Positions 4,311 to 17,040 of a stretch of DNA of 30,917 nt are shown here, in pieces (positions within the stretch are counted from its first letter, which is position 1; the number at the start of each line of letters is the position of its first letter). The notes below the pieces were generated by a model that worked only from the letters and a program-made list of their open reading frames with translations, had not been told where the DNA came from and did no database searches. The position numbers were made by a program, and so were the translations under genes. The DNA comes from Acidobacteriota bacterium (GTDB taxonomy: Bacteria > Acidobacteriota > Vicinamibacteria > Vicinamibacterales > 2-12-FULL-66-21). The stretch covers positions 1-30,917 of the forward strand of contig JACDCA010000764.1 of the NCBI GenBank assembly GCA_013694635.1. Direction: 5' to 3'.

Positions 4311-5143
4311 CCTTTTACCGCCCCGGCCGTGAGGCCGGCGATGAAATACCGCTGCAGCAGAACGAACGCCGCCACCACCGGCAGCAGCCCGACAATGCTC
4401 GCCGCGGCAACAATATGCCATTCCGTCTCGTACGCCCCCTGGAGGCTGAAGAGACCGACCGGCACCGTGAAGCGTTCCTGGGCGTCCAGCAGCACGAGCG
4501 CCAGCGAGAATTCGGCCCAGTACGACGCGAGATTGAAGATCGCGGCAGCGGCGAGGCCGGGGCCGGCCAGCGGCAGTGCAATCGCCCGAAACGTGAGCCA
4601 GCGTCCCGCGCCGTCCACGCGTGCGGCGTCGAAGAGCGCCGGAGGGAGTGCGTCGAAGAACGATTTCATCAGCCAGATCGTGAGCGGCACCTGCAGGGAC
4701 GCATAGACGAGGACCAGTCCCGCATGGGTGTCGACGAGGCCGAGGCGCTGCATCAGGCCGTAGATAGGCACCAGCAATACGACCGGCGACAGCATCTGCA
4801 TCCCGAGCAGGGCGCCGAGGATCGGTCCGCGGGCGCGAAATCGCTCGCGTGAGAGCACGAACGCCGCCGGCAGCGAGACGGCAAGCGTGAGCAGCGTCGA
4901 CAGACCCGCAACCTTGAAACTGTTCCACAGGTACCACGGCACCTGCGTCCGCAGGAGTGCAAAGACGTAGTTGGCCGTCGTCGGATCGTCAGGAATCAGC
5001 CGTGGCGGGTACTGGTAAACGGCCGACTTCTCCTTGAACGACAGCGACAGGAGCCACAACTGCGGCACGAGAAACACGAGCGTGATCGCGACCAGCGCGG
5101 CGACGTACGGCCAGCGCGATCCATACCGCGCGCTGCCGCTCAC
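4307..5143 (-). CDS. Carbohydrate ABC transporter permease (CUT1, MalG-type), about 278 aa
   Basis: GTG start at 5143 overlaps the upstream stop (GTGA). About six TM segments, EAA loop FFDALPPALFDAARVDGAG, and a typical C-terminus LQRYFIAGLTAGAVKG. Confidence 0.93.
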   Translation of the reverse strand: MSGSARYGSRWPYVAALVAITLVFLVPQLWLLSLSFKEKSAVYQYPPRLIPDDPTTANYVFALLRTQVPWYLWNSFKVAGLSTLLTLAVSLPAAFVLSRERFRARGPILGALLGMQMLSPVVLLVPIYGLMQRLGLVDTHAGLVLVYASLQVPLTIWLMKSFFDALPPALFDAARVDGAGRWLTFRAIALPLAGPGLAAAAIFNLASYWAEFSLALVLLDAQERFTVPVGLFSLQGAYETEWHIVAAASIVGLLPVVAAFVLLQRYFIAGLTAGAVKG

Positions 5144-7446
5144 GCGGTCACCCGCGCGGGTCGTGCCGGGCGCCCGGCGGCGAGCCGCGTCGCGAACCAG
5201 ATCAGCGGCACGTTGAACGCCAGCATGACCACGGCCGTCGCGGCCGCCATTCCGGCATCGAGGTCGTAGAAGGCGAGCCGGTACATGAACAGCGATGCGA
5301 CCTCGGTCTGCCGTGCGGGGCCGCCGCCGGTGAGCGGCAGAATCAGATCGAAGGTATTGAAGGTGTAGAGCGTCACGAGCACGGCGTTGAGCGCGATCAC
5401 CGGCGCAACTGCGGGCAGCACGACCACGCGCAGCCGCTGCGACATCGAGGCCCCCTCGAGATCGGCGGCTTCGTGCAGCTCGCGGGGAATCCGCTGGAGT
5501 CCCGCGTACTGCAGCACCATGCTGAATGCACACCCGCGCCACGTGTTCGCGATGATGAGCGAGACGACAGCGAACGACCCGGTCGAGAGCAGAGGCAACG
5601 GGCCGACGCCGAGCGCCGTGAACCAGTAGTTCACGAGCCCGGAGCGATTCTCCATCAGCAGAATCTTCCAGAGCACGCCGACGAGGACGCCCGGGACCAC
5701 CCATGCGCTGACGACGGCCACGCGGGCCGCAAGACCGCCCGGCACGCGCCTTCGCCTCGCGCCGTCCATCAGGTAGGCCATGCCGAAGCCGAGACCCAGT
5801 TGCAGCACGACGCTGGCCACGACGAAGAGGCACGTGATCCCCATCATCGGCCAGAAGTGCGGATCGCGGAAAAGCTCCGTGAACGACTCGAGGGTATAGC
5901 CCGCGCCGCGCTGCCCTGTGGTCGCGCGGGTGAACGCCAGCCGGATCAGCTCGAAGATCGGATAGAGCACGAAGAGCCCGGCGAGCGCCGCCGCGGGCGC
6001 GAGCCAGGCGCGGGGCATGGGGCCTCGACCTGGGAACAACACCCAGGCAATCAGACCCGCGGCGAGCACGATGGGCACCCAGGCGAGGAGGTCGAGTCCA
6101 GCGCGGCGTGCCGGCGCGGCGTTTCGCCGCTCCCACGCCTGCAGCACGTTGGCATACGCCGCGTCTACCGCGGCTTCGGGGGTGCGATCACCCGATATCG
6201 CGTAGCCAATGGCCAGCTGCAACTCCGTCGAGATCGCCGGATACATCGGGACGGCCGGACGAGCCTGGCCGCTCGCGACGATTTCGCCGAACCGCGCGTA
6301 CCACCCTTCCCGGAATGTCGGGAACTGCTGATAGACGCTTCGGCGTACCGGCAGGTGCCCCGTTGCTTCGCTGATGCGTGCGGCATTGGCCGGAGCCTCG
6401 ACGCGCCGAATCAACTCGACAGCCGCGCGGCGCCGTTCCGGATCCGTCGCAAACACCACCCAGATCCAGCCACCGGTTCCGGTCGATGAGGTCGCGGGAT
6501 CGCGCTGCGGAATCGGGGCGACGTCCCACTTCGCGAACTCCTCTGCGCTGAGATTGGCCTTCAGGTCCGCCAGTTGCCAGTTGCCGCCGAGGAACATCGC
6601 CACGTCGCCGGCGGCGGCAGCGGACGTCAGCTGCTGGTAGTCCATTGACGCAAGCACCGATCGTGGTGACGCGCCGGTGCGGATCGTGTCGCGCAGGAAG
6701 GCGAGCACGTTGACCATGCGCTGGCGGTCTGCCCCTTCGCCGAACACCGGCCGCCCCGCGCCGTCCACGAGCGTCCCCCCCTGCGCCCAGAACATCGCGA
6801 GATGATCGAAGACCGTCGCCTCCCAACGGCCCGCGTTGTAGAGATAGCCGGCGATATTCTGCTCGCGCGAGATCCGCGGCGCGATCTCCAGCAGTTCCGC
6901 CCACGAACGCGGCGCCCGTGGAACAAGATCCTTGCGGTAATACAGCACGCGACAGTCGGTTTCGTGCCACAGGCCGTAGACGTGGCCCGCCGGATCAGAC
7001 AGGGTCGAGATCGTAAACGGAAGGAAGTCCTGACGGTCCTCCGCCGGCCAGTAGTCGTCGAGCGGCTGCACTGCGCCGCTGTCGAGAAAGAGCGGAAGCC
7101 AGAAGCTGTCGATCGACGCGACGTCGGGCAGTCGGCCGGCGGACGCGGCGAGCAGCAGCTTGGCCTTGTGCTGCTCGAGCGCAGGCATCACCGAGACGCG
7201 CAGGTTGACGTCGGGCGTCGCGCGCGCCCAGTCCGAGAACACATCCGTGAAGACCTGCGCGATCGCCGGCCGGGAGGCGAGATGCGAGTAATCCTGCTGG
7301 GCCCACACGGTCAGCGTCGTCCGCGCTTCGGGATTTCCCACGCGGATGGGCGTGACGAGAGGCGGCTGTGCGGAAGCGCTCCGCGCGAGTCCGCACAGCA
7401 GCAGCGCGATCGGGAAGACGATCCGAAGGTGGCGGAGCACGCTCAC
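5140..7446 (-). CDS. Fusion protein: N-terminal extracellular solute-binding domain (family 1) + C-terminal MalF-type ABC permease, about 768 aa
   Basis: GTG at 7446 overlaps the PHP stop (GTGA). Signal peptide (LRIVFPIALLLCGLARSASA-Q), SBP motifs (GRLPDVASID, VLYYRKDL, PRSWAEL, MFLGGNW, GTGGW), then TM helices and EAA loop GLQRIPRELHEAADLEGAS, all in one uninterrupted frame. Confidence 0.9.
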   Translation of the reverse strand: MSVLRHLRIVFPIALLLCGLARSASAQPPLVTPIRVGNPEARTTLTVWAQQDYSHLASRPAIAQVFTDVFSDWARATPDVNLRVSVMPALEQHKAKLLLAASAGRLPDVASIDSFWLPLFLDSGAVQPLDDYWPAEDRQDFLPFTISTLSDPAGHVYGLWHETDCRVLYYRKDLVPRAPRSWAELLEIAPRISREQNIAGYLYNAGRWEATVFDHLAMFWAQGGTLVDGAGRPVFGEGADRQRMVNVLAFLRDTIRTGASPRSVLASMDYQQLTSAAAAGDVAMFLGGNWQLADLKANLSAEEFAKWDVAPIPQRDPATSSTGTGGWIWVVFATDPERRRAAVELIRRVEAPANAARISEATGHLPVRRSVYQQFPTFREGWYARFGEIVASGQARPAVPMYPAISTELQLAIGYAISGDRTPEAAVDAAYANVLQAWERRNAAPARRAGLDLLAWVPIVLAAGLIAWVLFPGRGPMPRAWLAPAAALAGLFVLYPIFELIRLAFTRATTGQRGAGYTLESFTELFRDPHFWPMMGITCLFVVASVVLQLGLGFGMAYLMDGARRRRVPGGLAARVAVVSAWVVPGVLVGVLWKILLMENRSGLVNYWFTALGVGPLPLLSTGSFAVVSLIIANTWRGCAFSMVLQYAGLQRIPRELHEAADLEGASMSQRLRVVVLPAVAPVIALNAVLVTLYTFNTFDLILPLTGGGPARQTEVASLFMYRLAFYDLDAGMAAATAVVMLAFNVPLIWFATRLAAGRPARPARVTA

Positions 7447-8840
7447 TTGACGGTCACGTAAACCGGGTTCGTGAGCGCCACGATCGTCGTGCCGCTCCGC
7501 ACGGCCACGCGAAGATATCCGTTTCCGCCGGCGCGGCGGACACGAACGGTTCCGTCTGCCGCCGGATGAGTCGTGGCGCTGTCTCCGTTCCACGAGAGCT
7601 CCACCGTGCAGCTCGCCGGGCACGCTCCGAGGCCGGGACTCGTGAAAGCGGGGATCGAAACGTGGACGTCGAGCTCCGCACCAGGCGAAATCTCGAGCGT
7701 CTCGCCGGTTCCGGCTGTACGTCCGGCGGACGTCACGGTCACCACCGGCGGTGGGGACGCGGGATCACGCATCATGACGACCGCGCCCGCGGCCACGGCA
7801 TCGAGGATCGCCGGTTCCGTCAAGGCCTCGGCGAATACGCGCACGCTGCCGGCGCCGATGTACCCAGGCGCGCGGTGCCAGTCGCTCGAGGCCACGCCGG
7901 TGACCCGCCTGCCTTTCGCGAGCAGCTTGTCCCATATGGCGATCGCCCCTGGCTGCGGCCCGAGGCCGCCGTTCCAGACTTCGATCGCATCGACGCGTTC
8001 CGGTGTGGGCTGCTTCCAGTCACACGCGTCGCAGTCGGCCACCGGGTGATTGATCGAGAACAGCGCACCGCGTGCATGGGCCGCGGCCGCAACGTCGATC
8101 ATGCGCGTGTCGTTTGCAGCCATCCGGAAGTCGAGCCAGTCGCCCGGTTTCAAGCCCCACACGTTCGCATGTCCGCCGGGCGTCGTAATCTCTTCTCCAA
8201 CGATGTGCAGCGGCTTGCGGTCAGGGTCCGGCGGGCGGGCAACAGCGTGTGTGGTGTTGTTGTGATCCGTGATGGCCACGAAGTCGAGGCCGGAGGCGCG
8301 CGCCATCTCCAGCACCTGCGCCGGCTCGAAGCTGCCGTCGCTGTGGACGGTGTGCAGGTGAAGGTCACCCGCGTACCAGCGTCGCACGGTGGTTGCGCCG
8401 GTCCCCGTCGTGATCCGAAGCGTGACGTCGATCCCCTGCGCCGCCACCTTGTACAGTCCGAGGATGACGTGCCAGCGTCCGGCCGGGAGTGGCCCCGCGC
8501 GATATCCCGGAGAGGCCGTCCCGGGCGTGAGCACGATCTCCGTGCGTGCGCCGCCGCTCCAGCCGCGCAACGCGCGCGATCCAAAATCGATCGAACCCGG
8601 CTCCATGAGCCCGAGGTCCACGGCGTTTGCGCCCCCCGCCTTGTCGTATGCCTGCTCGATCCTGACGGAGGTGGCATGGGCAGGAACATCGAACGGCACG
8701 TATTGGTAGCGCCCCGAACGGCGATCCTCAGGTGTGTAGCGGCGCGTGATCTCGATCGTTTCGCCGGGCGGGGCCCCTGCACCGGCCTCCAGACCGGAAC
8801 AGAACAGGACCATCAGGAGCACCTGGAGCGCGCGTGACAT
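7443..8840 (-). CDS. Secreted PHP-domain metallohydrolase, CehA/McbA family (paralog 1), about 465 aa
   Basis: Start MSRALQVLLMVLFCSG at 8840 looks like a signal peptide. PHP metal motifs GDLHLHTVHSDG, DFVAITDHN, GEEITTPGGH, SINHP, IEVWNG and SSDWH, preceded by an N-terminal beta-sandwich-like region. Confidence 0.88.
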   Translation of the reverse strand: MSRALQVLLMVLFCSGLEAGAGAPPGETIEITRRYTPEDRRSGRYQYVPFDVPAHATSVRIEQAYDKAGGANAVDLGLMEPGSIDFGSRALRGWSGGARTEIVLTPGTASPGYRAGPLPAGRWHVILGLYKVAAQGIDVTLRITTGTGATTVRRWYAGDLHLHTVHSDGSFEPAQVLEMARASGLDFVAITDHNNTTHAVARPPDPDRKPLHIVGEEITTPGGHANVWGLKPGDWLDFRMAANDTRMIDVAAAAHARGALFSINHPVADCDACDWKQPTPERVDAIEVWNGGLGPQPGAIAIWDKLLAKGRRVTGVASSDWHRAPGYIGAGSVRVFAEALTEPAILDAVAAGAVVMMRDPASPPPVVTVTSAGRTAGTGETLEISPGAELDVHVSIPAFTSPGLGACPASCTVELSWNGDSATTHPAADGTVRVRRAGGNGYLRVAVRSGTTIVALTNPVYVTVK

Positions 8841-8850
8841 GCGGGCGGCA

Positions 8851-8858
8851 ATTATAAT
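8851..8858. promoter_or_regulatory. Palindromic ATTATAAT giving a perfect -10 hexamer (TATAAT) on both strands
   Basis: Lies in a 24-bp gap between divergent starts (8840 minus, 8865 plus). The + strand TATAAT at 8853-8858 is 6 nt before ATG 8865. The - strand TATAAT at 8856-8851 is 10 nt before ATG 8840. It is an AT-only octamer in very GC-rich DNA. Confidence 0.65.
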
Positions 8859-8864
8859 CGGCGA

Positions 8865-9731
8865 ATGCTCGAACCGGTGTACATGCTCGCCATCGACCAT
8901 CGGTGGCAATGGGAGGAATGGTGCGACACCAACGGTGTCGCGCGCGCGCGGATCCCGGAGATAAAGGGGCTCGCGGCTGACGCGTTTCTCGCCGCTCGCG
9001 AACGGTCCGAAGCGATCCAACGTTCGGGGGCCCTGCTGGTGGATCTCACCTACGGCCGGGACGCATTCGAGACAGGACGCCGGGCAGGCGCCGTTGTCGG
9101 GACACCCGCGGAACGCGCCGGTGCCTTCCCTCTCGAATGGACGGCCGCTTTCGACGTTGCCCTGCCTGGCAACTTTGTCAAGGTCCTCGTCCGACACCGC
9201 TCGGACGTTGCCGCCGTCATCGTCGATGCCCAGCGCAAGCAGTTGCTGGAGCTCCAGCGCTGGTGCATCGATCACGACAAACCCCTGGTGCTCGAGGTGC
9301 TCATCTCACCGGTCGCGGGGGAAGAGCACGGCTTCGAGACCGACGGACGTCCACGGCTACTCGCCGCATACATCCGCGACGCGTACAGCCTTGACATCGT
9401 GCCGGCCTACTGGAAGATCGAAGGGATGCCAGACCGCCGCAGCTTCGCTCTCGTGGACGACGCAATCCGCGAGGTCGATGGCCCGAGACAGCTGATTCTC
9501 GGAAAGGGCGCGGGGATGGACCAGGTGCGCGGATGGTTCGAAGCGGCAGCGGGCGCTTCGACGGCGGCCGGCTTCGCGATTGGCCGCACGGTGTACTTCG
9601 CCGCCGCGTCCGAATGGCTCCTCGGCCGCCTGGAACGACGCGCGGCGGTCGATCGAATCGCTGCCAATTACCAAGCGATCATCGATCTGTGGCGCCAAGC
9701 TGTCACCCCTCAGCCGTCAGCTCTCAGCTGA
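8865..9731 (+). CDS. Stand-alone DUF2090-like protein; putative 2-deoxy-5-keto-D-gluconate-6-phosphate aldolase (class I TIM barrel), 288 aa
   Basis: Motifs MLAIDHR, VKVLV, LVLEVL, putative Schiff-base lysine in YWKIEG, LILGKG and GFAIGRT match the domain found C-terminally fused to proteobacterial IolC and LacD-like aldolases. Adjacent to iolD. Confidence 0.8.
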   Translation: MLEPVYMLAIDHRWQWEEWCDTNGVARARIPEIKGLAADAFLAARERSEAIQRSGALLVDLTYGRDAFETGRRAGAVVGTPAERAGAFPLEWTAAFDVALPGNFVKVLVRHRSDVAAVIVDAQRKQLLELQRWCIDHDKPLVLEVLISPVAGEEHGFETDGRPRLLAAYIRDAYSLDIVPAYWKIEGMPDRRSFALVDDAIREVDGPRQLILGKGAGMDQVRGWFEAAAGASTAAGFAIGRTVYFAAASEWLLGRLERRAAVDRIAANYQAIIDLWRQAVTPQPSALS

Positions 9732-9736
9732 TAGCT
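9710..9736. repeat. Short 7-bp tandem repeat (TCAGCCG TCAGCTC TCAGCTG ATAGCT) containing an 18-bp near-perfect palindrome
   Basis: AGCT-C-TCAGCTGA-T-AGCT at 9719-9736 has one mismatched pair. It spans the stop of the DUF2090 gene and abuts the iolD stop. Confidence 0.5.
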
Positions 9737-11607
9737 TAAAAGAACCTCCTCTGCTTCTTCCGCCCCTCCTCGTACTCGCGGCGCGCCTGCTGAACCCTCG
9801 GCTGCTCCGAGACCTCAGACACCGGCACGTCCCACCAGCAGCCGTAGCCAGGCGCACGCGCCGCGGGATCGACGGGGATGTGCACGACCGCCGTTCGATC
9901 GGCCGCCCGCGCAGCAGCCAGCGCCGTTTCGAGCGATGCGCGGTCTGTCGCCCGGAACAATCGGGCGCCGAGAGACTCGGCGTTGGCCCCGAGATCCACG
10001 GGCAGCGGCGGTCCGTCCAGCAATCCGCTGCGCGGATCGCGGAAGCGGTAATCGGTCCCGAACCCTGCCGACCCGACCGAGCGCGACAGGCCCCCGATGC
10101 TCGCGAAGCCGCCGCTGTCCAGCAGGACGATGATCAGCGGGTAGTCTTCCTGCACCGACGTCACGATCTCCTGCGCCATCATCAGGTAGGAGCCGTCCCC
10201 CACCATCACGTATACGTGGCGGTCGGGGGCCGCCATCTTGACGCCGAGCCCCCCGGCGATCTCGTATCCCATGCAGGAATAGCCGTACTCCACGTGGTAC
10301 CCCTTGGGATCGCGGGCACGCCACAATTTGTGCAGCTCGCCGGGGAGGCTTCCCGCCGCGCAGACGACGACATCGGCCGGACTCGACGCCTGGTTGACGG
10401 CGGCGATCACCTCCGCCTGCACCATCGGCGATGCGCCGGTGGGCGCCGTCACGCGATCGCTTTCCTCGATCCACGCAGTTCGCAGCTGCTCGACGCGCTC
10501 GCGGTAGCCCGGGGCGGTCGTGAAGCCCGCAACCATCTCGTGCAGCTCTTCGAGCGCCGCACGCGCGTCGGCGAGCACGGGCAACGCCGCGTGCTTGAAC
10601 GCGTCCATCTCGACGACGTTGATGCCGATAAATCTGACGCGGGGGTCATGGAACGCGGTTTTGGACGCGGTCGTGAAATCGGTCAGGCGGCAGCCAACGG
10701 AAATCACGAGGTCCGCGTCGCGGCAGATATCGTGCGCGGCGGAGCTTCCGGTAACACCGGCAGCGCCCAGGGCCATCTGATCATCCCACCTCATCGTCCC
10801 TTTCCCGGCCTGTGTTTCGAGAACGGGGATGCCACACGAGCCAGCGAAGCGTCGGAGTGCGGGGGACGCCTCGCTGTAGAGGACGCCGCCGCCGGCAATG
10901 ATCACCGGTCGATGGCTGCCGCGAATGAGCGAGGCAGCGCGTTGCAGGATCTCGTGATCGCCGCGGGACCTCTGCACCGTCCAGATTCGCTCAGCGAAGA
11001 AGGCGGCGGGATAGTCGAACGCTTCGGCCTGGACGTCCTGCGGCAGCGCCAGCGTGACGGCCCCCGTCTCTGCCGGCGATGTCAACACCCGCATGGCGTC
11101 GGGCAGCGATGAGAGGAGCTGCTCCGGACGGTAGATGCGGTCCCAGTAGCGCGACACGGGCTTGAAGCAGTCGTTGACCGAGACGTCCTGCGAGTGCGGG
11201 GATTCCAGCTGCTGGAGGACCGGGGCCGGCAGGCGGCTGCCGAAGATGTCCCCGGGGAGCAGGAGGACGGGGAGCCGGTTGATGGTGGCGCCCGCGGCAC
11301 CCGTCAGCATGTTCGTGGCGCCGGGGCCGATCGACGTCGTGCACGCGAGCATGCGCAGTCGGTTGTGCATCTTCGCGTAGGCCGCGGCCGTGTGCACCAT
11401 CGCCTGCTCGTTGCGGCACTGGTAGTACGGCATGAGGTCGTGCATCTGGTCGAGCGCCTGCGCGACGCCTGCGACGTTGCCGTGCCCGAAGATGCCGAAC
11501 ATGCCGCCGAAGAGCGGCTGCCGGTTGCCGTCCCGCTCGGTGCGCTGTGCGGCGAGAAACCGCACCAGCGCCTGCGCCATCGTCAATCGAACCGTTCCTG
11601 GTTCCAT
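9736..11607 (-). CDS. iolD: 3D-(3,5/4)-trihydroxycyclohexane-1,2-dione acylhydrolase (ThDP-dependent), 623 aa
   Basis: RLTMAQALVRFL N-terminus, GIFGHGNVAG, RNEQAMVH, TTSIGPGATNM, EYGYSCMGYE, ThDP motif VGDGSYLM, and the typical WWDVPV C-terminus. Confidence 0.97.
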   Translation of the reverse strand: MEPGTVRLTMAQALVRFLAAQRTERDGNRQPLFGGMFGIFGHGNVAGVAQALDQMHDLMPYYQCRNEQAMVHTAAAYAKMHNRLRMLACTTSIGPGATNMLTGAAGATINRLPVLLLPGDIFGSRLPAPVLQQLESPHSQDVSVNDCFKPVSRYWDRIYRPEQLLSSLPDAMRVLTSPAETGAVTLALPQDVQAEAFDYPAAFFAERIWTVQRSRGDHEILQRAASLIRGSHRPVIIAGGGVLYSEASPALRRFAGSCGIPVLETQAGKGTMRWDDQMALGAAGVTGSSAAHDICRDADLVISVGCRLTDFTTASKTAFHDPRVRFIGINVVEMDAFKHAALPVLADARAALEELHEMVAGFTTAPGYRERVEQLRTAWIEESDRVTAPTGASPMVQAEVIAAVNQASSPADVVVCAAGSLPGELHKLWRARDPKGYHVEYGYSCMGYEIAGGLGVKMAAPDRHVYVMVGDGSYLMMAQEIVTSVQEDYPLIIVLLDSGGFASIGGLSRSVGSAGFGTDYRFRDPRSGLLDGPPLPVDLGANAESLGARLFRATDRASLETALAAARAADRTAVVHIPVDPAARAPGYGCWWDVPVSEVSEQPRVQQARREYEEGRKKQRRFF

Positions 11608-11640: not shown

Positions 11641-12486
11641 TCAGGGCCGCGGGACGACGGGAACGCGGGGGTCCGGGGGCGGCCAGGCCGCCCGTAGCGC
11701 CGCGTACTTCGGATCGTCGCTTGCCGCCATCGAACGGCGCTCCCCCGCCAGGACGTTCAGGTAGTAGGCATCGTATCCGTACGCCGTCACGAACGGATGG
11801 TAGCCGTCGCGGATGAGAACGACGTCCCCGTGCACGACCTTTACCGTCGCGTCGCGCGCGCCGTCGGCGGTGTACAGCCGCTGAAACCCATACCCGTCGG
11901 CGTCTCTCATTCTGTAGTAGTAGATCTCTTCCAGATCGACCTCCACCGGCGGGTTGTCGACGTCATGCTTGTGCGGCGGATAACTCGACCAGTTGCCCGA
12001 CGGCGTGAATACCTCGCAGAGCATCAGCCGATGCGCCGGAAACTGCGGTGAAAGGATGTCCACGATCTGCCGCGTCGCGTTCCCCCCGCCGCGGATCTCG
12101 AAGCCGCAGTCACGCGGCCCCACGAGCTTCGGCTCGAGCGGCATCTCGGAGGGCGCGCGACATTCGGCGATCTCCGACACCTCGGATGCGCGAAACGCGG
12201 CGCCGTGCCCATGGGGTAAGTAAACGGCATGCGGATAGCTCGCGAATACGTCGGCGCGCGGCCCGAACGTCCGCGGCGCTTCGCGGTCGATCGCGACCTC
12301 TCCGCTCCCGCGCAGCAGGACGACGCAGCACTCCTCGCCGCGCGCGCGCGTCCGCCATGTCTCCCCCGCGGCAAGACGGCGGACAGTGAAGCGGATGAAC
12401 TCCCACCCCGCCGTTCGCGGCGTGACATCCACCAGCACTCCGGATTGATCACCCTGCAGCTGCCGGGATTTGAGGACTGTTTTCAT
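11641..12486 (-). CDS. iolB: 5-deoxy-glucuronate isomerase, about 281 aa
   Basis: Start MKTVLKS at 12486. VTPRTAGWEF, GNWSSYPPHKHD, LEEIYYY, GYGFQRLY, GYHP and YYLNVLAG are KduI/IolB motifs. Confidence 0.95.
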   Translation of the reverse strand: MKTVLKSRQLQGDQSGVLVDVTPRTAGWEFIRFTVRRLAAGETWRTRARGEECCVVLLRGSGEVAIDREAPRTFGPRADVFASYPHAVYLPHGHGAAFRASEVSEIAECRAPSEMPLEPKLVGPRDCGFEIRGGGNATRQIVDILSPQFPAHRLMLCEVFTPSGNWSSYPPHKHDVDNPPVEVDLEEIYYYRMRDADGYGFQRLYTADGARDATVKVVHGDVVLIRDGYHPFVTAYGYDAYYLNVLAGERRSMAASDDPKYAALRAAWPPPDPRVPVVPRP

Positions 12487-12525
12487 GGAGAAACGGCGAC
12501 AACGCGACACAGACCGCGAGCGCAG

Positions 12526-12586: not shown

Positions 12587-13546
12587 GTGACGCACGACAT
12601 CCTCTGCATGGGACGAAGCAGCATCGATCTCTACGCGCACGAGATCGGCGTGCCCATGACCGGCGTGAAGAGTTTCGACGCGTACGTCGGGGGCTGTCCG
12701 ACCAACGTGAGCGTCGGCACCCGCCGGCTGGGCCTCCGGTCGGCGCTGCTGACCGCGGTCGGCACTGACCAGGTCGGGGACTTCGTCCTCGCGTTTCTCA
12801 GGAACGAAGGGGTGGACGTGGACTCCGTGCCTCGCATCCCTGAGCGCCGCACGAGCGCGGCGCTGCTGACGATCCAGCCCCCCGACTGCTTTCCGCTGAC
12901 GTTCTATCGCGATAACTGCGCGGACCTCGCGCTCACCATCGAAGACGTCCGGCGCGCGCCCGTGGACGGCAGCCGCGTGCTCTTCGTGACAGGTACCGGC
13001 CTCAGTGCCGACCCGAGCCGCACCGCCACGCTGTTTGCCGCCGAGCACGCTGCCGCTCGCGGAACGACAGTGGTGGTGGATATCGACTACCGCGCAGGGC
13101 TGTGGCCCTCTGCCGAGGCGTTCGGCACGAACGTGCGTCCACTCCTCGCGCGGGCCGGGCTCGCCATCGGGACGGAAGACGAGGTCTGCGCGGCATCAGG
13201 CCAGGACGATGCGCGGGCCGGTGCCGGGCGTCTCCTCGAGGCGGGTCTCCCGGTACTCATTCTCAAGCGCGGCGGCGACGGAGCGGCCGTCTACCGGCGC
13301 GGCGGCGAGCCCGTGGCCGTTCCGCCGTTCGTCGTGGACGTGCTGAATGTGCTCGGCGCAGGGGACGCTTTCGCGAGTGGATTCATTTACGGATATGTGA
13401 ACGGCTGGACGCTGGAGGATGCCGCCCGCTTCGGCAACGCCGTCGGCGCCATCATCGTCACGCGCCACGGCTGCGCCAACTTCATGCCGACGCTCGCGGA
13501 GGTCCACGACTTCCTCCAGCAGCAGGACGTCCGGATCGCGCCATGA
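12587..13546 (+). CDS. iolC: 5-dehydro-2-deoxygluconokinase (PfkB family), 319 aa, without a DUF2090 extension
   Basis: DILCMGRSSIDLY, YVGGCPTNVSVG, FYRDNCADL, DIDYR and PfkB signature VLNVLGAGDAF...ANAVGA-like. Located in the iol cluster. Confidence 0.95.
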   Translation: MTHDILCMGRSSIDLYAHEIGVPMTGVKSFDAYVGGCPTNVSVGTRRLGLRSALLTAVGTDQVGDFVLAFLRNEGVDVDSVPRIPERRTSAALLTIQPPDCFPLTFYRDNCADLALTIEDVRRAPVDGSRVLFVTGTGLSADPSRTATLFAAEHAAARGTTVVVDIDYRAGLWPSAEAFGTNVRPLLARAGLAIGTEDEVCAASGQDDARAGAGRLLEAGLPVLILKRGGDGAAVYRRGGEPVAVPPFVVDVLNVLGAGDAFASGFIYGYVNGWTLEDAARFGNAVGAIIVTRHGCANFMPTLAEVHDFLQQQDVRIAP

Positions 13547-14463
13547 CCTCTACGTCCACCAAGGTCCGCGTCGCGAATGCCCCCTGCTCCTGGGGCGTGC
13601 TCGAATTCGAAGAGCAGTCGGCTGCCGGATACGAGTACGATCGCGTGCTGGACGAAATGGCGACGGCCGGATACGCAGGGACGGAGCTCGGCGACTGGGG
13701 CTTCATGCCGACCGACCCGCCGGCGCTCGCCGGCGCGCTCGCGAGCCGCTCGCTTGCGCTCGTCGGCGCGTTCGTCCCCGTGCGGCTTGCCGATCCGGGC
13801 GCCACAGACGAGGGGGGGGCAGCGGCGATCCGGACGGCGCGACTGCTTGCAGGCGCCGGCTTCCCTGGTGCGTTCGTCGTGCTGGCGGACGACATCGCAG
13901 CGAGCCCGGAACGCACGGCCATCGCGGGACGTGTCGGCCCGGCTGATGCGCTGCCCGACGCCTCGCGGGAGATCTTCGCGCGCAATGCGGAGCATATCGC
14001 CCGCGCCGTTCGAGAATCGACTGGACTCCGCACCGTTTTTCATCACCACTGCGCGTCGTTCGTCGAGACCATGGAAGAGATCGTGGATCTCATGAATCGT
14101 ACGGATCCCTCGGTGCTCGGTCTCTGTCTCGACACCGGCCACCTGACCTACGCCGGCGGCGATCCACTTCAGGCACTGGACCGCTTCGGCAGCCGCATCT
14201 GGCATGTGCATCTGAAGGATTGTTCCGAGCCTGTCGCCGCGCGGGCGCGTGACGGTAAATGGGACTACAATGCCGCCGTTCGACACGGCGTTTTCTGCGA
14301 GCTTGGCCACGGCGTAGTCGATTTTGCCGGTGTGCTGGACCGCCTGGACGCCATCGGCTACACGGGATGGGCGGTCGTCGAGCAGGACGTCCTCCCATCG
14401 CTCGGGACGCCGGCAGCGAGCGCGCGGCGGAACCGCGAGTTCCTGCGCCGCTTCTCGCTGTGA
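13543..14463 (+). CDS. iolE: myo-inosose-2 dehydratase (xylose isomerase-like TIM barrel), about 306 aa
   Basis: ATG 13543 overlaps the iolC stop (ATGA). ANAPCSWG, GTELG, FHHHC, LCLDTGH, HVHLKD and WAVVEQD motifs. Confidence 0.9.
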   Translation: MTSTSTKVRVANAPCSWGVLEFEEQSAAGYEYDRVLDEMATAGYAGTELGDWGFMPTDPPALAGALASRSLALVGAFVPVRLADPGATDEGGAAAIRTARLLAGAGFPGAFVVLADDIAASPERTAIAGRVGPADALPDASREIFARNAEHIARAVRESTGLRTVFHHHCASFVETMEEIVDLMNRTDPSVLGLCLDTGHLTYAGGDPLQALDRFGSRIWHVHLKDCSEPVAARARDGKWDYNAAVRHGVFCELGHGVVDFAGVLDRLDAIGYTGWAVVEQDVLPSLGTPAASARRNREFLRRFSL

Positions 14464-14479
14464 CTCTCCACGCCTGACG

Positions 14480-15508
14480 ATGCCGACCCACCCGTCCACC
14501 ATGCTGGCAGCCGTGTTCGCACGCGAGGGCGTGCTGGAACTGCAGGAGCGGCCCGTGCCGCGAGCGACGCTTCCCGGCGACGTGCTCATCGACGTGGAAG
14601 GATGCGGAATCTGCGGCACCGATCTGCACATTCTCGAATCTCCCCCCGCGCATCCCGCGACACCGGGATCGATCCTCGGACACGAGTTTATCGGGCGAAT
14701 CGCCGACGCGGGTGAGGGCGTCACCGGACTCCGACCCGGCCAGAGAGTCGCCGTGGCGCCGAACCTGTGCTGCGGGCGCTGCGCGTCGTGCCGGTGCGGC
14801 CGTCCGAATCACTGCGCCGACTTCTCGACGCTGGGAATATTCCGCGATGGCGGACTGGCCCGATTCTGCGTCGCGCCCGGCGCCGCGTGCCATCCACTTG
14901 CCGAAACGGTGATGTTCGAGGACGCGATCTGGGTGGAAGTTCTGTCGTGCGTGGTGAACAGCGTCGACAACATCAGCGCGCGGGCGGGAGAAAACGTAGT
15001 CGTCATCGGCGGCGGGCCGGTCGGCGCGCTCCATGCGCTGTTGTTTGCCGCCGGCGGCGCCCGCGTCATCGTGTCGGACGTATCCGACGCGCGGCTCGAT
15101 GTGTTGCGCTCGGCGGGCATCGCGGCAACCGTCAACCCCGCACGCGAGCCAATGGAAGAGGCCGTCCGTAGTTTTGCTAGTGGCGGCGCCGATGTCGTCG
15201 TCGACTGCGTCGGCACCCAGCTGGATGCCGCGCTGGATGTCGTCCGCACCGGCGGGCGCATCTCGCTTTTCGGCATGAACGCCCGCGCGCGCCCCGCGGT
15301 GCGTCAGAACATGATCACGCGCAACGAGCTGACGATCTACGGCAGCTACGTGGGCGTGAATACGTTCCCGCGCGCGATTTCGCTGCTCGAGCGCGGGGTG
15401 ATCTCTCCGTCCGTGATGATTTCATCCGTGATGCCGCTGAGCGGCATTCACGACGCGCTTGGTCTGCTGCGGTCGGGCAGCGCGATGAAGGTCGTGATCA
15501 GGCACTGA
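14480..15508 (+). CDS. Zinc-dependent medium-chain (polyol/inosose) dehydrogenase, about 342 aa
   Basis: CGICGTDLH, GHE, structural Zn site CGRCASCRCGRPNHC and NAD-binding GGGPVG. Start at 14480 (alternative 14501). Confidence 0.9.
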   Translation: MPTHPSTMLAAVFAREGVLELQERPVPRATLPGDVLIDVEGCGICGTDLHILESPPAHPATPGSILGHEFIGRIADAGEGVTGLRPGQRVAVAPNLCCGRCASCRCGRPNHCADFSTLGIFRDGGLARFCVAPGAACHPLAETVMFEDAIWVEVLSCVVNSVDNISARAGENVVVIGGGPVGALHALLFAAGGARVIVSDVSDARLDVLRSAGIAATVNPAREPMEEAVRSFASGGADVVVDCVGTQLDAALDVVRTGGRISLFGMNARARPAVRQNMITRNELTIYGSYVGVNTFPRAISLLERGVISPSVMISSVMPLSGIHDALGLLRSGSAMKVVIRH

Positions 15509-15567
15509 AAAAAGGGGACAGCCACCTTTTTACGGATTTCGAAAAAAGGTGGCTGTCCCCTTTTTCA
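15506..15567. terminator. Long inverted repeat acting as a probable bidirectional intrinsic terminator (possibly REP-like)
   Basis: Perfect 23-bp arms AAAAAGGGGACAGCCACCTTTTT (15509-15531) and AAAAAGGTGGCTGTCCCCTTTTT (15543-15565) with an 11-nt loop. U-tracts on both strands. It fills the gap between two convergent stop codons. Confidence 0.85.
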
Positions 15568-17040
15568 GCGGAAATACACCGGGTTCGCGATCACCGTAAC
15601 GCCTGCCGAGTCCCGAAGATTGATGCGCACCCAGTCTCCCCGCTGCACCGGGATGTCGAACTCGACCACGGCCTCGTTCTGCGCGATCGGTGGCGCCGGC
15701 GCGGGCGAGACGAGGGTGCCGTTGCGGATCACGTCGATCTGCTGGCCCCGGGCCCGTTCCGCTGCCAGGCGAAAGCGAACGATGCTGGAGGCCGTGGGCA
15801 GCTGGATCGTGCCGCCCATGCTGGTGTGGAACGCCGGCGCCGAGAACCGCACCTCCGGTCCATCCGGGCCGCGTACCTTGATATAGACGCGTCCGCGGCG
15901 GATCCCTGCGAGCAGCGCCTCCTCCGTCAACGTCTCCGCTTCGATCACTGTCGTCGGCACGCCGACCGCGGAGCCCGCGCGCGTGCTGGCGCCGTGATCG
16001 TCGCTGCCGCCGATCCCGGTGAGCCGGTGCTTCTCGTTCAGCCGCGCGTGCCAGAAGGGTTCTCCCGCCGTGGGTCCTGACACCGTGAATCCATTCACGA
16101 CCTCGATGGCGTCCACCAGCGCGTAGTCTGTGCCCGGCGCGTTCCAGCCGCAGCCGGTGCAGCGTTCCCCCGTCTCACGTCCGGGATGGTTGATCGACAC
16201 CAGCGCGCCGAGTTGCCGGGCGCGCGCGAAAACGTCGCGAGCCGCGAGGCCGGCGGCGCCGATGCGGAAATCGAGCACCTCACTTGTACCGAAGACGTTC
16301 GCGTGCCCGTAGAACGTCGTCACCTCCTGGCCGCGCAGCAGGAGGAGGCGTCTGCTCGTCAGCTGCAGCGCCGCCATGTCGGCGTGATGGCTCGTAGTGT
16401 TGTGATCGGTCACCGCCAGGAAGTCCAGTCCGAGGCGCGTTGCGGCGTCGACCACCTGGTGCACCGCGCACGGACCGCTCCCCCCGTAGCCGTCCGCGCA
16501 GCCATAGCCGTCGCTGTGCAGCGTGTGGGTGTGCAGATCTCCCTGATACCAGCGAGGGCCCGCAGCCGCCGCAGTGGCTGGCAGCGTGAAGGGCGTCGGC
16601 TGCACCGGACCTTCGGACGTCATGCGGATGACAACGCGGTATGTGGAGACAATGCCGTCGCGAATGCTCGGCACACCCATCAGCAGCCGCCACGTGCCGG
16701 CCGGAAGTTCTCCCGGATGATAGGCGGGGGTCGCGGTGGTGCGGGCGATGAAGAAGCCGGTCTTGCTCGTGCGACTCGCCCCCCGGAAGCGGACCGGGTC
16801 GTAGAGGCCGAATTCGATCGCCGTCCCCTCGGTGCGATGGCCGTAGTTCGTCTCCACGTCGATTCGCGCGGTGCCCGCCGGGACGTCGAACGCGCGCTCG
16901 AGCCACGCGAGCCGGTCGGCCGCCGAGATCGTTCCCTCCAGCACGATCTCGCGCGTTGCGGGCCTCTCGATCGGTGCCTGGTGGCGCGCAGGGAGAGTAC
17001 TCACAGAGAAGATGAGGGCAAGAGCTGCGATACCGCGCAT
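15565..17040 (-). CDS. Secreted PHP-domain metallohydrolase, CehA/McbA family (paralog 2), 491 aa
   Basis: Signal-like N-terminus. Motifs GDLHTHTLHSDG, DFLAVTDHN, GQEVTTFYGH, SINHP, IEVVNG and GGSDDH. Collinear with paralog 1, including the N-terminal FDVP..G..PAGxW region. Confidence 0.9.
   Translation of the reverse strand: MRGIAALALIFSVSTLPARHQAPIERPATREIVLEGTISAADRLAWLERAFDVPAGTARIDVETNYGHRTEGTAIEFGLYDPVRFRGASRTSKTGFFIARTTATPAYHPGELPAGTWRLLMGVPSIRDGIVSTYRVVIRMTSEGPVQPTPFTLPATAAAAGPRWYQGDLHTHTLHSDGYGCADGYGGSGPCAVHQVVDAATRLGLDFLAVTDHNTTSHHADMAALQLTSRRLLLLRGQEVTTFYGHANVFGTSEVLDFRIGAAGLAARDVFARARQLGALVSINHPGRETGERCTGCGWNAPGTDYALVDAIEVVNGFTVSGPTAGEPFWHARLNEKHRLTGIGGSDDHGASTRAGSAVGVPTTVIEAETLTEEALLAGIRRGRVYIKVRGPDGPEVRFSAPAFHTSMGGTIQLPTASSIVRFRLAAERARGQQIDVIRNGTLVSPAPAPPIAQNEAVVEFDIPVQRGDWVRINLRDSAGVTVIANPVYFR

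Follow-up and report, generated by a model that had tools for sequence, protein, structure and literature searches.

The window, i.e., the whole 30,917-nt stretch of DNA analysed here, is contig C607 of a 3.72-Mb MAG (G000) that comprises 783 contigs, is 91% complete, and has a G+C content of 67%. It carries a set of inositol catabolism genes around a stand-alone DUF2090 gene, the focal gene of this analysis, and two CehA/McbA-family PHP metallohydrolase genes flank the inositol genes. The features are arranged as follows:

7443–8840, minus strand: CehA/McbA-family PHP metallohydrolase of 465 aa (NF038032, 200 bits), divergent from the focal gene
8865–9731, plus strand: stand-alone DUF2090 gene of 288 aa, encoding a predicted class I 5-dehydro-2-deoxyphosphogluconate (DKGP) aldolase
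9736–11607, minus strand: iolD, THcHDO hydrolase (TIGR04377, 913 bits; cut-off 715)
11641–12510, minus strand: iolB, 5-deoxy-glucuronate isomerase (TIGR04378, 292 bits; cut-off 205)
12587–13546, plus strand: iolC, kinase-only, 319 aa (PfkB only; TIGR04382, 381 bits; cut-off 300)
13543–14463, plus strand: iolE-like inosose dehydratase (TIGR04379, 187 bits, below the cut-off of 290)
14501–15508, plus strand: Zn-dependent MDR dehydrogenase (ADH_N and ADH_zinc_N; start at 14480 or 14501)
15565–17040, minus strand: second CehA/McbA-family PHP metallohydrolase (NF038032, 257 bits)

The focal gene is convergent with iolD, from which it is separated by 4 nt, and this layout recurs in two related genomes (G316 and G433). 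The start of iolB is uncertain, with candidates at 12486, 12510, and 12624. IolC proved to be short and kinase-only, as the first-pass annotation had claimed, and covers just the N-terminal half of the bifunctional model NF047869. The ATG of the iolE-like gene overlaps the stop codon of iolC (ATGA), and the Zn-dependent MDR dehydrogenase is the final gene of this iolC–iolE operon. Its scores as an IolM-like protein (177 bits) and against PRK10083 (YdjJ-like, 183 bits) both lie under the respective cut-offs; a homologue that is 69% identical adjoins iolE in G433. A Gfo/Idh/MocA IolG is absent from the window, and the genome contains neither a canonical IolG (best match 157 bits against a cut-off of 355) nor a clear IolA (best TIGR01722 match 283 bits against a cut-off of 448); the pathway context is therefore not fully canonical. 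In this lineage, the oxidation of inositol or inosose may fall to the Zn-dependent dehydrogenase.

The PHP metallohydrolase at 7443–8840 has a hydrophobic, signal-like N-terminus, and both PHP proteins could be secreted phosphoesterases that free inositol from a phosphorylated or conjugated source. The divergent PHP/DUF2090 pair, with its 24-nt gap, is also present in a related contig. Within that gap (8841–8864), which lies between the divergent ATGs at 8840 on the minus strand and 8865 on the plus strand, a perfect AT-only palindrome, ATTATAAT, occupies 8851–8858 and gives TATAAT on both strands, 6 nt from the plus-strand ATG and 10 nt from the minus-strand ATG. This arrangement suggests a putative back-to-back pair of leaderless or near-leaderless promoters. 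The palindrome is not conserved upstream of the DUF2090 gene in five related genomes, and a scan for sigma-70 consensus promoters passed over the TATAAT ahead of the focal gene, which has no −35 match. Further along the minus strand, a CUT1-type solute-binding domain (SBP_bac_1/8) and an ABC permease domain (BPD_transp_1) share one open frame (5140–7623); this fusion seems genuine and not a by-product of high G+C content, since a related metagenome contig has the same architecture in one 758-aa gene.

The ORF at 8865–9731 on the plus strand is a real gene. In a Pfam profile search its product matched PF09863 (DUF2090) with 151.3 bits (E 4e-44), well over the cut-off of 27 bits, across profile positions 37–309 of 310; the missing positions, approximately 1–36, correspond to the linker stretch that precedes the barrel in fused proteins. 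No other Pfam family, including DeoC/LacD PF01791, matched at E ≤ 0.001, and hence PF09863 outscores PF01791, which is the criterion used by Price et al. The same search gave no match to PF01116 (F_bP_aldolase), the family of IolJ. More than 1,200 homologues of 158–504 aa (clusters at 90% identity) were found, the nearest of which carry the names Vicinamibacterales or Acidobacteria. In six related genomes, the DUF2090 N-termini begin a few residues ahead of the same Y(M/V)LAxDHRWQ strand. Upstream of the focal gene, the HMM match continues only across a TGA; this extension was rejected as an alignment artefact, since all relatives share the same short N-terminus. Likewise, a minus-strand ORF at 7443–9275 that overlaps the focal gene was rejected as a high-G+C artefact, because its family match does not begin until residue 299 and position 8840 offers an ATG with a hydrophobic N-terminus behind it, which is the start of the true divergent gene.

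The split form is abundant and common in soil metagenomes: the locus occurs in near-identical form in soil, terrestrial, and sediment metagenome runs from approximately 15 studies, and RNA runs are absent from the public runs listed for it. Stand-alone proteins of this kind are currently named 'DUF2090 domain-containing protein' (NCBI) or 'IolC' and '5-dehydro-2-deoxygluconokinase' (JGI).

The AlphaFold (AF2) model of the focal protein, for which the input alignment comprised 30 homologues that are 57–76% identical to it, is a (beta/alpha)8 barrel with a pLDDT of 95.1 and a pTM of 0.91. When structures were ranked against this model with Foldseek, the DUF2090 crystal structure 8TNF came first, followed by LacD and YihT. 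In VIA-align superpositions, the model matched LacD with its DHAP carbanion (3mhg) at Z 28.0 and an rmsd of 2.4 Å over 266 of 288 residues, 8TNF at Z 26.8 and 2.7 Å over 266 residues, YihT (7ag7) at Z 24.6 and 2.9 Å over 253 residues, and eukaryotic-type class I FBP aldolases at Z of approximately 22.7 and 3.0–3.3 Å. The model thus superposes on LacD and YihT over most of its length, which is the mark of the class I DHAP-aldolase fold. LacD, 8TNF, YihT, and the class I FBP aldolases are all Schiff-base enzymes that release DHAP. 8TNF, the only solved DUF2090 member, is titled a sulfohexulose-1-phosphate aldolase, a role that its covering paper only suggests. Tagatose-bisphosphate and sulfosugar-phosphate aldolases are the nearest folds with solved structures, and the structural ranking therefore also suits a class I aldolase for some other ketose phosphate (fructose- or tagatose-1,6-bisphosphate, for instance, or a further sugar-acid phosphate), with DKGP cleaved elsewhere, e.g., by a LacD-type paralogue; the family tree and the distribution of the genes, described below, bear on this alternative.

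The predicted active site is encoded by the following elements of the focal gene:

9180–9182, plus strand: codon of Lys106 (FVKVLV), invariant, equivalent to the catalytic lysine of LacD that Price et al. cite
9294–9296, plus strand: codon of Glu144 (VLEVLI), invariant, the predicted general acid/base and counterpart of LacD Glu164
9411–9425, plus strand: WKIEG motif, residues 183–187, with Lys184 as the predicted Schiff-base lysine
9414–9416, plus strand: codon of Lys184, which, like Trp183, is conserved in all three family clades
9501–9587, plus strand: predicted phosphate-binding elements G213-K-G-A-G217 and G240-R241-T, of which G213, G240, and R241 are conserved family-wide

A search of PDB sequences, with both the single protein and a profile, returned 8TNF as the sole match, and for this reason the residue correspondence to LacD and YihT was drawn via 8TNF and from residue spacing. 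In the profile alignment to 8TNF, the segment FVK106VL pairs with VKVL, VLE144VL with VLELL, YWK184IEG with LYKLET, ILGKGAG with LLSGGA, and AIGR241T with LAGRT. Lys106 and Glu144 are 38 residues apart. The catalytic Lys and Glu of LacD, also 38 residues apart, are conserved in the fused proteins, and the pair Lys493/Glu531 of BPHYT_RS13910 has the same 38-residue spacing (PMC9007349). The spacing of Lys184 from Lys106 and Glu144 matches that in LacD as well. In YihT, the Schiff base is formed on Lys193, and the phosphate is bound by Ser226, Ser227, and Arg253 (PMC8006165); the spacing of Lys184, the GKGAG loop, and Arg241 in the focal protein equals that of these residues. The focal protein therefore has the conserved Lys and Glu of LacD together with a predicted Schiff-base lysine. 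Residues D11, H12, R13, K106, E144, W183, K184, G213, G240, and R241 are at least 85% conserved in every DUF2090 clade, and the approximately 68 invariant columns among the 30 homologues with 57–76% identity include every catalytic residue. The first-pass annotation had described a separate, single-domain gene with DUF2090 motifs and a WKIEG lysine, a description that agrees with PF09863 as the only family match (151 bits), the length of 288 aa, the confident model, and the family-wide conservation of Lys184.

An exhaustive search of 1.84 billion cluster representatives recovered 857 clusters at E ≤ 0.001, of which the best 150 are mostly proteins of approximately 300 aa; the first fused protein among the matches appears at 36% identity. 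A maximum-likelihood tree of 124 full-length DUF2090 domains, calculated with no outgroup, has a single deep split (SH-aLRT 100) that separates 39 rows from 85. The 39-row side consists of the clade that contains the window protein (9 rows, SH-aLRT 98), a stand-alone trio, and a 27-row clade (support 95), in which 16 long proteins are PfkB–DUF2090 fusions and 11 are short and may be secondary splits or truncated gene calls; one member of this fused clade, P0200, is a triple fusion of KduI(IolB), PfkB, and DUF2090. On the 85-row side, 81 proteins stand alone, and in the remaining fusions Pfam identifies a GlpX FBPase, a NagB/Pgl-like domain, or other PfkB kinases as partners; GlpX FBPase–DUF2090 and DUF2090–NagB/Pgl-like fusions are found among P0251 and P0249. 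The gene context of tree representatives was also read. Two members of the 85-row side (loci L022 and L023) lie, one beside PfkB and PTS genes and the other, a stand-alone gene, beside glpX, and P0145 and P0136 lie on contigs too short to inform. These architectures and contexts suggest FBP- or ketose-bisphosphate-type aldolases for the larger branch.

With SH-aLRT 100, the window clade is nearer to the IolC-fused domains than to the other DUF2090 proteins, and Q15, P89, and Y174 are common to the window clade and the fused clade and rare on the 85-row side. No representative in the window clade is fused, and the clade is not nested inside the fused clade; with the root on the other branch, a direction that we infer for a tree built without an outgroup, the window clade would therefore be no recent fission product. 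The DUF2090 family is functionally mixed, its larger branch being associated with PTS or PfkB genes and with GlpX. Since many stand-alone members of that branch have such unrelated contexts, a DUF2090 match by itself is insufficient to assign an inositol function, and the same contexts speak for an aldolase of another ketose. Against that alternative, however, the window clade joins the IolC fusions and not the PTS/GlpX branch. Clade membership points to an inositol function, and the assignment favoured here is a prediction from clade and gene context together.

The linkage to inositol genes extends beyond the window. Homologues with 49–69% identity adjoin iol genes in two metagenome contigs, one with the order iolG-like, SBP, DUF2090, iolB, iolC, iolE, and the other with a PHP hydrolase, DUF2090, iolB, iolC, and Zn-ADH, as in the window. 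In five related genomes (G228, G316, G457, G433, and G509), DUF2090 homologues lie 1–6 kb from iolB, iolC, or iolD. An association with iolC, iolB, and iolD is thus seen in the window, the five related genomes, and the two metagenome contigs. In an even sample of 151 genomes from the same order, iolB scored above its cut-off in 24, while IolC was found in 11 and DUF2090 in 10; IolC and DUF2090 occur together in eight of these genomes, IolC only in three, and DUF2090 only, with lower scores, in two. Because the genomes are relatives, these counts are descriptive and carry no statistical test. As 3 of the 11 IolC-positive genomes of the order are without DUF2090 (G513, G432, and G435), DUF2090 is not the sole solution. 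In G513, a DeoC/LacD-family class I aldolase is convergent to iolC–iolD–iolE (contig C18, L041:12331–13320, minus strand); it scores 68.7 bits against PF01791 and only 21.6 bits against PF09863, carries the motifs AIDHRD, AKLLLYY, FLEP, and MKMEFP, and seems to fill the slot of IolJ as another class I aldolase of independent origin. In G432, of the same genus as G513, the contig ends inside iolD.

The absence of IolJ was examined at the level of the genome. Searching all six frames of the MAG (3.72 Mb, 91% complete) recovered no member of the class II aldolase family PF01116, and there is therefore none in the window. This agrees with the first-pass annotation, which had reported the cluster to lack iolJ. 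Given 91% completeness and 783 contigs, a missing IolJ in this MAG alone is no proof; PF01116 is likewise missing from G457, G228, G316, G433, and G464, which are 90–100% complete, and all six of the checked genomes that combine a stand-alone DUF2090 with a bona fide iolB, the present MAG included, are without a class II aldolase.

The only LacD-type aldolase of the MAG (NF009498) is split by contig ends (C763:13423–13965, L003; C108:3570–4142, L004). All 11 sampled genomes of the window's family have a LacD-type gene, with or without iolC, and none of the seven sampled from family f10 does; four of these seven carry iolC and DUF2090. This family-wide occurrence regardless of iolC, and the absence from f10, fit a housekeeping gene that cannot be the general iol aldolase, and the LacD-type protein is probably the glycolytic aldolase, since no class II or other FBP aldolase was detected in the MAG. 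The same observations are relevant to the assignment of the focal protein to another phosphorylated ketose: in its favour, the genome needs a glycolytic aldolase, is devoid of a class II FBP aldolase, and does carry a LacD-type gene; against it, the LacD-type gene is missing from the f10 genomes that have iolC and DUF2090, and the DUF2090 gene tracks IolC (8 of 11 genomes) and lies inside iol clusters. We therefore regard a different ketose as an improbable substrate.

Two complete relatives are informative with respect to the kinase. G429 (C11, L034) and G426 (C4, L035) contain iolB–iolD(–iolE) clusters, and neither IolC, DUF2090, nor PF01116 was found in either genome, a hint that some members of the order may run the lower branch of inositol catabolism without the kinase. 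Such kinase-free routes would lend some plausibility to a focal enzyme that cleaves unphosphorylated 5-dehydro-2-deoxygluconate, or another inositol-derived keto acid, independently of IolC. However, since these two genomes have iolB, iolD, and iolE but neither IolC nor DUF2090, the aldolase travels with the kinase, to which it is fused elsewhere, and its predicted phosphate-binding loop and arginine are invariant; a substrate without phosphate is thus very improbable. That the protein is a TIM-barrel remnant with a non-catalytic or regulatory role, or that the gene is decaying, is scarcely credible, as nothing specific speaks for it beyond a profile match that can be lengthened only by crossing a TGA codon, and the frame is intact, the N-terminus matches that of all relatives, all catalytic residues are among the invariant columns, the model is confident, and the locus recurs nearly unchanged in many soil metagenome runs.

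The focal protein is, in our judgement, most probably a stand-alone DKGP aldolase that acts at the sixth step of myo-inositol catabolism in place of IolJ. This reading starts from what the analysis shows directly: the class I aldolase fold, conserved active-site residues, membership of a clade that groups with the fusions, linkage to iol genes, a distribution that follows IolC, and no class II aldolase in the genomes searched. Substrate, products, and individual residue roles are inferred from these observations. Within the LacD/YihT/DUF2090 superfamily, the protein would be an unfused class I (Schiff-base) aldolase, corresponding to what proteobacterial IolC carries as its C-terminal domain. 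In the proposed mechanism, IolC would phosphorylate 5-dehydro-2-deoxy-D-gluconate to its 6-phosphate product, DKGP, and Lys184 of the focal protein would form an imine with the C5 ketone of DKGP while the G213-KGAG loop and Arg241 hold the phosphate. Assisted by Glu144 and Lys106 in proton transfer, the C3–C4 bond would then be cleaved to give malonate semialdehyde and enamine-bound DHAP, which would finally be hydrolysed off Lys184. DKGP has a ketone beside a CH2-O-phosphate, like the DHAP end of FBP, TBP, and SFP, and the chemistry therefore fits.

A further possibility concerns the history of the clade. The stand-alone clade might be a never-fused lineage which, together with the LacD-family aldolase of G513, would imply two or more recruitments of class I aldolases into the inositol pathway, and the substrate range of the clade could also differ from that of the fusions; this scenario is rather unlikely, yet somewhat less so than the alternatives above. 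If true, the differing substrate range could involve, e.g., a pathway variant whose entry steps use the Zn-dependent dehydrogenase and the putatively secreted PHP hydrolases found in this island.

The idea that DUF2090 stands in for IolJ is already known. Using fitness data and domain analysis, Price et al. proposed DUF2090 in 2022 as the DKGP aldolase in IolC fusions (PMC9007349), and NCBIfam NF047869 names the fusion a bifunctional 5-dehydro-2-deoxygluconokinase/5-dehydro-2-deoxyphosphogluconate aldolase. The replacement of IolJ put forward in the first-pass annotation is upheld as a prediction from fold, conserved catalytic residues, clade, linkage, co-occurrence, and the lack of class II aldolases; it is not new, and a DUF2090 match by itself would be insufficient. 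A literature search found no published DKGP-cleavage assay for any DUF2090 member.

In most bacteria, the DKGP aldolase reaction is the part of inositol catabolism known with least certainty, and IolJ is rare. The DUF2090 proposal has so far come from fusions, in which mutant phenotypes cannot separate the kinase from the aldolase, and a stand-alone DUF2090 protein that tracks a kinase-only IolC, with no class II aldolase present, provides independent comparative support. Such a small, well-folding, single-domain protein is also a simple construct for a first enzyme assay and structure. For annotation, stand-alone proteins are now named after their domain or are wrongly called 'IolC', and a DUF2090 match alone should not be equated with DKGP aldolase.

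Compared with known systems, the focal protein is proposed to catalyze the same reaction as B. subtilis IolJ, i.e., the conversion of DKGP to DHAP and malonate semialdehyde. IolJ, however, is a class II, metal-dependent enzyme of the unrelated family PF01116, in place of whose divalent metal the focal protein has a predicted Schiff-base lysine. With LacD, YihT, and 8TNF, the focal protein shares the (beta/alpha)8 fold (Z 24–28, rmsd 2.4–3.0 Å), the active-site lysine, the glutamate, and the phosphate site, and the release of DHAP from a ketose 1-phosphate-type end would be common to all. It is only 13–22% identical to these enzymes and differs from them in gene context; LacD and YihT belong to PF01791 and the focal protein to PF09863, and its presumed substrate has a distal carboxylate instead of a phosphate or sulfonate.

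The closest counterpart is the fused DUF2090 domain of IolC. The focal protein differs from it in being encoded by a separate 288-aa gene that is not adjacent to iolC, in being at most approximately 36% identical, and in forming a clade of its own (SH-aLRT 98). Against NF047869 it scores 67 bits, with a cut-off of 600, over model positions 360–585 only, and it is not filed under that model because it represents the aldolase half alone. Nevertheless, both lie on the same side of the deepest split in the tree, and they share the Pfam family, the catalytic Lys/Glu/Lys residues, the phosphate-binding residues, the pathway context, and the predicted reaction.
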